DNA of 6,033 bases from a virus (Duplodnaviria > Heunggongvirae > Uroviricota > Caudoviricetes): IMG/VR virus record IMGVR_UViG_2563366955_000008, positions 1-6,033 of that record. One strand, written 5' to 3'. Shown here piece by piece: positions 1,443-2,333 of this stretch. Below the pieces are notes generated by a model. That model saw nothing but the letters and a program-made list of their open reading frames with translations, had not been told where the DNA came from and did no database searches. The position numbers and the translations under genes were made by a program. Within the stretch, counting starts at the first letter, position 1; each line of letters begins with the position of its first letter.

Positions 1443-2333
1443 ATGAATAAAAAATATGAACTGGTTGTTAAGGGGATAAATAATTACGGGGATAAGGTTA
1501 CTGTTACTGTGAAGTCGGAAGGTGACGGGCAAGCGTCGCTGTTGTTGCCAGATGTGGCGATTAGTCTTGACCGTACTGAAGGTGCCACGCTGGAGTTTTA
1601 CGAAGCTGAGGCGAAAAAGCAGGCGAAGCAGTTTTTCATGGATGTTGCTGCCGGGTTATGTGAATGGAACGAACCGTTGCCGGAAAAGCGCCCCGTAATT
1701 TTAGAGGCGCAGGATGTGTTGATAACCTACAAAGGAAAGCTACCGGGAAGAATTACTTGTTCTCTGAAGATGCCGCCGTCAACACTGCGGTCAGAAAAAG
1801 ATGATGTTGAATCACGTATTGAAAAACTGGAGAGCTACGTCGTTGAGCTGAATAAGAAATGGTCGATATTGGTGCCTTCTGGCGATGAAAAGCAGTTTGC
1901 TGCGTTTGACGATTATTGTCGGAAAGTGATGAGCAGAAATCTCGCAGAGTGTTTCAGTATTCATAATGATAATTTCAGTGACCCGGAATGGGAGTGTAAC
2001 CGGCCATCCTTTGTTGTATCCGGTGATGCTGGGAAAATAACCATCTCAGAAAATGGGAAAGTAACACCTCCATCGCACCAGCACAGTGAGGAGCTCATTG
2101 AATTTGCCATTGATTACCTGAAGAACAATAAAAAGCAGGGGCTGATGAAGCGCGTTGGCCGTTGCATGGGATATCTTCAGGTAGCCGCTGAGATTGAAGC
2201 GCTGGCCAGTGGTGCTGATAAGGATGCAATTGTGCGGGAGGCTCTTCTTCGTGATTTTAATACTCCACCCTTTAAAAAAGTGCCGGCTTACTGGCTTCAT
2301 CCGGGGCTGACTTATCTTAAAGTGCGTATTTAG
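1443..2333 (+). CDS. Hypothetical protein, 296 aa, inserted between holin and endolysin; N-terminal ~75 aa resemble the YdfR-type (DUF1327-like) prophage protein, C-terminal ~220 aa unrecognised
   Basis: Intact 297-codon ORF. ATG 1443 lies 4 nt after the holin stop (TAA 1436-1438) with SD GGGGAGAG inside the holin 3' end, so it is translationally coupled; a GTG at 1440 is an alternative start. N-terminus MNKKYELVVKGINNYGDKVTVTV...DVAISLDRTEGATLEFYEAEAKK resembles my recollection of E. coli Qin YdfR, which occupies the same holin-endolysin position. No TM segments, signal peptide or catalytic motif recognised. Confidence 0.8.
   Translation: MNKKYELVVKGINNYGDKVTVTVKSEGDGQASLLLPDVAISLDRTEGATLEFYEAEAKKQAKQFFMDVAAGLCEWNEPLPEKRPVILEAQDVLITYKGKLPGRITCSLKMPPSTLRSEKDDVESRIEKLESYVVELNKKWSILVPSGDEKQFAAFDDYCRKVMSRNLAECFSIHNDNFSDPEWECNRPSFVVSGDAGKITISENGKVTPPSHQHSEELIEFAIDYLKNNKKQGLMKRVGRCMGYLQVAAEIEALASGADKDAIVREALLRDFNTPPFKKVPAYWLHPGLTYLKVRI

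Follow-up and report, generated by a model that had tools for sequence, protein, structure and literature searches.

The 6,033-bp stretch of the tailed-phage record IMGVR_UViG_2563366955_000008 (positions 1 to 6,033 of that record; in the following called the window, to which all window coordinates refer) is the late region of a lambdoid prophage, located 3′ of Q, the antiterminator gene; several complete E. coli genomes, e.g., NZ_CP169035.1, have prophage DNA in their chromosomes that is 100% identical to it. In its lysis cassette, between the genes of a P21-type pinholin (S) and a signal-arrest-release (SAR) endolysin (R), lies an open reading frame (ORF) of 296 codons on the + strand (1443..2333), which encodes a long two-domain protein of the YdfR family (PHROG 1085). 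This ORF is certainly a real gene, far beyond what chance would produce. Judged from the loci compared here, it is an accessory, non-essential late gene that is dispensable for lysis and is not a component of the lysis machinery. The best explanation for its product, although a tentative one, is a late cytoplasmic adaptor that might act on RNA or on the RNA-decay machinery of the host. Compared to the preliminary description of the gene, which was made from the nucleotide sequence alone, the analysis adds in descriptive terms the two-domain architecture, a C-terminal domain without a recognisable fold relative, a coupling signal that is generic to the junction with the S gene, a mis-annotation in RefSeq and a candidate partner encoded by a convergent gene, called Y in the following.

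The gene is intact, starts with an ATG at position 1443, 4 nt past the stop codon of the holin gene (TAA at 1436-1438), and terminates with a TAG at 2331-2333, 36 nt short of the lysozyme gene. The upstream neighbor encodes a class II holin (pinholin S) of 71 amino acids (1223..1438, + strand), which matches Pfam PF04971 (P21 holin S) with E=7e-33 as well as the PHROG holin families. The downstream neighbor encodes a SAR-type lysozyme (2370..2903, + strand; Pfam PF00959, Phage_lysozyme, E=2.4e-24) with an N-terminal Gly/Ala-rich hydrophobic stretch as in a SAR endolysin and with an E-x8-D-x5-T motif. A GGAGAG Shine-Dalgarno (SD) sequence is located within the 3′ end of the holin gene (1430-1435, + strand), 7 nt before the ATG. 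The preliminary description was therefore right in placing an intact gene between pinholin and SAR endolysin and in placing its SD inside the holin gene with a start 4 nt past the holin stop. The phrog_1085 profile is matched end to end (positions 1-296 of 296, E=3.1e-190); the annotation of this PHROG family is "unknown function."

As a sequence the gene is ordinary and not new. At least 1000 public contigs encode the identical protein of 296 amino acids, which is named there "YdfR family protein," "DUF1327 domain-containing protein" or "hypothetical protein," i.e., what the preliminary description had called an unknown gene was already catalogued and annotated, though RefSeq calls it a truncated pseudogene. 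At least 80% of the gene is present in 496 of 5426 complete E. coli genomes (about 9%) and some part of it in 2703 of them (about half); the carriers of the gene or of its relatives include Stx2 (Shiga toxin 2) phages and the O104:H4 outbreak strain. Pairwise ratios of non-synonymous to synonymous substitution rates (dN/dS) against diverged copies are below 1 in all three parts of the protein, i.e., 0.55-0.8 for the first 75 codons, about 0.35-0.46 for the middle part and 0.17-0.25 for the C-terminal 116 codons, for which the value stays at about 0.2 even at a dS of about 2. The pattern of substitutions indicates that the C-terminal domain is under strong purifying selection.

These data bear directly on the annotation in RefSeq, which implies a decaying prophage remnant or a pseudogene. 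In identical complete genomes the RefSeq annotation pipeline PGAP covers codons 1-112 only and labels them as a pseudogene, "YdfR family protein, incomplete, missing C-terminus" (for example in loci L001, 7443-7778, and L096, 1501-1836), and about 13% of the related loci are indeed split or frameshifted. However, the 296 intact codons, the full-length PHROG match, the occurrence of the identical protein on at least 1000 contigs, the purifying selection and the presence in inducible Stx2 phages make decay a highly improbable explanation, and the pseudogene call seems to have arisen from a reference model that is too short. The C-terminal 184 codons have no annotation in RefSeq and many matches to the C-terminal domain in E. 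coli have no feature beneath them. As a consequence of this mis-annotation and of the unannotated C-terminal domain, the gene has been overlooked by comparative studies.

The protein is composed of an N-terminal domain, a linker, a helical segment and a C-terminal domain. The N-terminal domain (residues 1-75; 1443..1667, + strand) is a DUF1327/YdfR module, for which three β-strands and one helix were predicted with AlphaFold2 (AF2) at moderate confidence, i.e., with predicted local distance difference test (pLDDT) values of about 62-86 per block of 10 residues. The Pfam family PF07041 (DUF1327) matches residues 1-100 with 137.9 bits, the gathering score being 25 (E=1.3e-40), and residues 1-74 are 47% identical to YdfR of E. 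coli K-12, confirming the resemblance of the first ~75 residues to YdfR that had been noted earlier. The domain is acidic with an isoelectric point (pI) of 4.8. Its dN/dS (0.55-0.8) is far above that of the C-terminal domain (about 0.2), and at least two allelic types of the N-terminal domain occur, by recombination, in front of one and the same downstream sequence, which reads as mosaic and possibly diversifying evolution.

The linker (residues 76-118, beginning PEKRPVILEAQDVLITYKGKLPGRI; 1668..1796, + strand) is modelled by AF2 with pLDDT values below 50 and is variable or absent among the relatives in the alignment of the family (alignment A1). It is followed by a helical, coiled-coil-like segment (residues 119-175, beginning DDVESRIEKLESYVVELNKK; 1797..1967, + strand), which is mosaic and has optional inserts in relatives; across residues 76-175 the relatives vary by insertion or replacement of whole segments, and L136 is invariant in alignment A1. 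AF2 places helices at residues 114-143 and 149-171 with low confidence and only weak, generic coiled-coil matches were found for this segment in Pfam. The coiled-coil-like stretch proposed earlier corresponds to the helix that is predicted, at low confidence, for residues 114-143.

Residues 176-296 (1968..2330, + strand) comprise the conserved C-terminal domain with a folded core at about residues 190-296. When distant relatives were included in the alignment, AF2 predicted this domain at a pLDDT of 89 and a predicted template modelling score (pTM) of 0.82 as a three-stranded β-meander followed by four helices. The motifs GR..LQ.AAE and PPFK...W..PG..YL are invariant. No conserved Cys/His cluster and no catalytic-looking constellation was found in the alignments of the relatives; the Cys of GRCMG varies between C, S and A, and only one His is nearly invariant. 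A metal-binding Cys/His region, as considered for this part of the protein, was rejected, since no Cys or His motif is conserved, and the Cys/His-containing region of the preliminary description does not hold as a feature of the family. The domain is without enzyme-like motifs and, judged from its sequence and the structure models, looks like a protein-binding module. The whole protein has a pI of about 6 and a maximum Kyte-Doolittle value of 0.75 over a 19-residue window, i.e., it is soluble, and neither a transmembrane segment nor a signal peptide was found in the 296 residues, which suggests that it is cytoplasmic. The AF2 model of the full-length protein is of low confidence (pLDDT 51) and its Foldseek matches in the PDB are meaningless.

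Searches for distant relatives remained nearly empty. When the full protein and 35 relatives were scanned against Pfam, NCBIfam and PADLOC, only DUF1327 and generic coiled-coil noise came up; PDB sequence searches with the protein and with profiles of the C- and N-terminal domains gave nothing under E=0.17, and a search of the viral structures in BFVD gave no fold relative of the C-terminal domain. With the Pfam, PDB and viral-fold searches empty for the C-terminal domain, the earlier statement that the residues beyond the YdfR-like part have no characterized relative stands. An exhaustive HMMER search of 1.84 billion representatives yielded 29 proteins only, the scan of GTDB representative genomes matched Escherichia and Shigella only, and nothing under about 59% identity was detected in the metagenome scan. 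Taken over the genome, viral and metagenome scans, the range of the C-terminal domain is confined to Escherichia, Shigella, Salmonella and a few contigs of gut metagenomes. This shows that the family is narrow and has no informative distant homolog.

This family includes two-domain relatives of the Salmonella type (e.g., P0148 and P0152, "hypothetical protein" of Salmonella enterica). They have the same layout of N-terminal domain, coiled-coil and C-terminal domain and share a coiled-coil motif of the LEERVAALEKRL type; their C-terminal domains are 35-44% identical and carry the same invariant motifs, and their N-terminal domains are homologous to DUF1327 (hhalign, 92% probability, E=6e-7). 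However, their loci differ, in that the gene is located 5′ of the holin gene in the accessory region between Q and S, and S and R overlap directly. The position of the gene between S and R is therefore specific to the E. coli lineage, while distant loci have the gene 5′ of the holin. The shared architecture suggests that the long two-domain form is probably ancestral and that YdfR of K-12, with 103 amino acids, is a short form. A recent accidental fusion was rejected, since the Salmonella-type relatives have the same architecture, and this also weakens the view of the protein as an expanded, possibly fused, odd member of its family. As a side observation, the linker of the Salmonella-type relatives (P0152, residues 84-146; locus L091) weakly matches PHROG families of tail fibres and J proteins (E about 1e-6), which suggests a shared oligomerising, perhaps trimeric, segment.

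A close known counterpart is YdfR itself (P76160), encoded in the cryptic prophage Qin of K-12. It has a homologous N-terminal domain and lies in the same slot between a P21-type holin gene, essQ, and a lysozyme gene, rrrQ, with an essQ-ydfR junction that is identical in form to the junction of holin gene and ORF in the window. In contrast to the long form, it has 103 amino acids without linker, coiled-coil-like segment or the C-terminal domain of 115 residues; the slot in Qin carries the N-terminal domain only and the long form is not of the single-domain type. The Stx2-converting, inducible phage 86 encodes a PHROG 1085 member (orf5/gp05) in the S-R slot, starting 4 nt past S, but as a mosaic variant of 268 amino acids followed by the convergent gene Y, which is absent from the window.

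Among the loci examined after the holin gene, the slot is occupied by a fusion form of 296 or 329 amino acids in 38 loci (start 4 nt after the holin stop), by a C-only form of 185 amino acids without a nearby DUF1327 gene in 29 loci (start 3 nt after the holin stop), by a C-only form of 213 amino acids followed by a separate DUF1327 gene of 75 amino acids in four loci (start after 3 nt), by a C-only form of 209 amino acids in two loci (start after 3 nt) and by split or frameshifted forms with variable starts in about 12 loci. The survey of gene neighborhoods thus found the C-terminal part as a standalone protein, in C-only forms of 185-213 amino acids. In the split loci L035, L038, L045, L063, L064, L081 and L087, an ORF of 183-211 amino acids with N-terminal domain and linker is followed by an out-of-frame ORF of 134 amino acids for the C-terminal domain.

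For the function of the family, the only lead comes from YdfR of K-12. It was reported that RNase G, used as the bait of a bacterial two-hybrid screen, picked up its residues 1-72, that Rne(1-598), the catalytic N-terminal half of RNase E, co-elutes with Strep-YdfR and that DNase-resistant nucleic acid co-purifies with YdfR (PMC13232886, 2026). Over-production of YdfR was non-toxic and was accompanied by few transcript changes (PMC13232886). In the full-text literature searched on ydfR, DUF1327 and the lysis cassettes of Stx phages, only this RNase E interaction study and an entry in an envelope screen were found, and nothing on the long form. The proposal of an adaptor to RNA decay is made because the N-terminal domain of the window protein corresponds to the part of K-12 YdfR that was reported to bind RNase E. 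According to this proposal, the long YdfR-family protein would be made together with the lysis proteins late in infection from the ribosome-binding site at the end of the holin gene; its DUF1327 domain, by homology to the 47% identical K-12 YdfR, would engage RNase E or RNA; the mosaic coiled-coil-like linker would tether it to the C-terminal domain and probably drive oligomerisation; and the conserved α/β C-terminal domain of 115 residues would bind another partner. As an outcome, the decay of host RNA might be tuned, e.g., by stabilizing or re-routing late transcripts, rather than the lysis machinery itself being affected.

There are precedents for phages that change RNA decay through a protein bound to RNase E, namely T7 gp0.7, T4 Srd and phiKZ Dip. 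Dip uses acidic surfaces, and the N-terminal domain of the window protein is likewise acidic. However, these three belong to virulent phages, in which they are early or middle genes, and show no relation in sequence, whereas the gene described here is a late gene of a temperate phage.

Several points weigh against an RNA-decay adaptor. The link to RNase E comes from one study of a short, over-produced homolog with 47% identity, whose authors concede that the RNA may have come from a contaminant and report very few transcriptome changes (PMC13232886). Moreover, a pI of 4.8 is atypical for a direct RNA binder. The best-conserved part of the protein is the C-terminal domain, which has no assignable activity, and C-only forms without a nearby DUF1327 gene are as common as the fusion (29 vs. 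38 loci), so that the conserved function may not involve the N-terminal domain at all. Finally, the persistent linkage to cassettes with a P21-type holin and a SAR endolysin in every lineage seen would also fit a lysis-related role.

Such a role could be that of a cytoplasmic modulator of the lysis clock, which, through translational coupling, is produced at a constant ratio to the pinholin and binds the short charged cytoplasmic C-terminal tail of the S21-type pinholin, or otherwise delays or sharpens triggering. The soluble cytoplasmic protein RIII of T4, which acts on a holin, and LydB of P1 would be analogues. T4 RIII, P1 LydB and P2 LysA/LysB are additional genes within lysis cassettes, and lysis itself does not require them; the sequence and structure searches with the window protein turned up no similar protein outside its own family. 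In E. coli, in the Salmonella-type and in the metagenomic relatives the gene is always found a few hundred bases at most from a P21-type holin and a SAR lysozyme, and the E. coli forms start 3-4 nt past the holin stop. However, in the distant relatives the gene lies 5′ of the holin with other genes between, i.e., the coupling is not conserved. A modulator of the lysis clock would be supported by the deletion of ydfR in the Keio collection, which was scored in a screen for envelope integrity (Paradis-Bleau 2014, supplement), but in our view the simplest explanation for this phenotype is that read-through of the kan cassette extends into rrrQ, which encodes the SAR endolysin.

The junction itself is informative in this respect. 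The 3′ end of the holin gene (GGGGAGAGTAA) with an ATG 3-4 nt further on (window 1395-1475) is conserved whichever gene comes next. The genes that use the GGGGAGAGTAA junction are R in phage Min27, the ORF of the window, the 268-amino acid variant of phage 86, the C-only forms and ydfR of K-12. This shows that the coupling signal belongs to the holin and that the ribosome site at the holin end is generic to the junction, which argues against a coupling dedicated to the lysis clock. Furthermore, only 4 nt separate S and R in many Stx2a phages, among them the 933W-like phages and Min27, a viable phage whose holin protein is 100% identical to that of the window, with R directly in the slot. As the identical pinholin functions in Min27 without the gene, an obligatory role in lysis is ruled out, and the finding argues against a dedicated holin partner; the candidate of an obligate pinholin partner was rejected on these grounds. 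In addition, one holin allele pairs with the 296-amino acid form, with the 213-amino acid C-only form plus DUF1327 gene and, at 99% identity, with the 185-amino acid form, showing that holin and slot occupant do not co-vary. In the loci compared, neither the co-variation with the holin nor the requirement that would mark the specific holin partnership of an antiholin was found. Taken together, a modulator of the lysis clock is rather improbable, and the earlier notion that the position of the gene implies a role in lysis is weakened by the relatives located 5′ of the holin, by the generic junction and by Min27.

The insertion might still act in cis. In cassettes without the gene, R uses the SD at the holin end and starts 4 nt after the S stop. 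Due to the insertion at the S-R junction, R of the window now starts at 2370, 36 nt 3′ of the ORF and behind a spacer (2334..2369, + strand) without an obvious or recognisable SD, so that translation of R may be reduced or may use another mechanism. This opens the alternative that the insertion separates R from the holin-end SD, gives it a poor ribosome site instead and thereby lowers endolysin relative to holin, with the protein itself mattering little. However, the C-terminal domain is under purifying selection (dN/dS of about 0.2) and the architecture is kept in relatives located outside the S-R junction, suggesting that it is the protein itself that is selected; an effect in cis alone is therefore very unlikely.

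No promoter-like site on the + strand was found within window 1100-2400 in a crude scan, so that expression of the ORF would depend on the Q-dependent late transcript. Independent expression of the ORF in the lysogen was rejected on the basis of the same scan.

In several divergent lineages, the gene is accompanied by the convergent gene Y, which encodes about 105 amino acids (phrog_1853, no Pfam match) on the opposite strand, 12-18 nt past the stop of the C-terminal domain (e.g., L095, 3864-4178; L091, 4785-5102; L098, 436-759; L099, 585-902; all on the - strand). Y is present in Stx2 phage 86 and in the Stx2_12E129 records; among the 777 complete E. coli genomes with the C-domain segment, 95 have this segment together with Y, an O104:H4 strain being one of them. 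Y is adjacent in 19 of 70 metagenome loci and was also found in Salmonella and on two distant contigs from metagenomes. In the phage database all four Y records fall among the five records with the C-terminal domain, i.e., Y was found only beside it. This makes Y a possible dedicated partner of the C-terminal domain. The window and most E. coli loci are without Y.

The recurrent association with Y across phage, metagenome and Salmonella loci could also point to a late conflict function, i.e., a cargo for competition between phages, exclusion or abortive infection, or a toxin/immunity-like pair with Y. It would agree with such a function that the S-R, R-Rz and post-Rz junctions hold variable accessory genes (Ant, a DNA methyltransferase, Bor, a TonB_C lipoprotein) and that the dN/dS of the N-terminal domain is elevated (0.55-0.8). 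However, Y is missing from the window and from most E. coli loci, and no nuclease, NTPase or toxin-like motif is present in the 296 residues. The best PADLOC match, PbeC (E=0.018, 11 bits), lies on the coiled-coil stretch and is not significant. Moreover, expression that is tied to the holin falls into a cell already committed to lysis, and over-production of K-12 YdfR is non-toxic (PMC13232886). A conflict function is thus unlikely, and the role in defence or abortive infection that had been considered for the gene found no support.

The remainder of the window has the layout of a lambdoid late region. Its first 105 nt match the Rfam small RNA STnc100 with 73.8 bits and represent the 3′ part of an STnc100-like leader RNA that is closed by a strong terminator hairpin (75-96); this stretch is presumably the pR′-tR′ late leader, transcribed from the late promoter pR′. 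The accessory region between Q and S carries a gene for an IraM-like anti-adapter (131-466, - strand) and a truncated DUF1737 fragment (712-915, + strand), which is the N-terminal remnant of a NanS-p-type esterase, and a second terminator-like hairpin with a T-tract (1156-1184) is located just 5′ of the holin gene. Between endolysin and Rz there are two small ORFs with one hydrophobic segment each (3060-3242, phrog_1115; 3257-3388, phrog_4906), which are further uncharacterized occupants of the lysis cassette. The i-spanin Rz (3400..3858, + strand, with the PGAP start; Pfam PF03245, E=2e-47) has the o-spanin Rz1 embedded in its gene (3611-3796, + strand; Pfam PF06085, E=4e-20). A lipoprotein with a TonB C-terminal domain (TonB_C) is encoded 3′ of Rz (4169-4495), in the position held by bor in lambda; the name given to its family phrog_1267 in PHROGs, "Rz-like spanin," looks mislabelled. 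The last gene in the window encodes a Nu1-like small terminase subunit.

As a summary, the gene and its relatives sit in the lysis cassette of a large share of the lambdoid prophages of E. coli. In an extended form of the RNA-decay reading, which we regard as unlikely at present, the long YdfR proteins would constitute a new class of late effectors of temperate phages, in which the N-terminal domain acts on RNase E or RNA and the C-terminal domain recruits a second partner (Y in some lineages), so that in Stx and other lambdoid phages the decay of host RNA would be coupled to late gene expression and to the timing of lysis. The release of toxin by Stx phages depends on late transcription and lysis. 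If it is true that the protein modulates RNA decay or the timing of lysis, both the burst size and the amount of toxin released would be affected.

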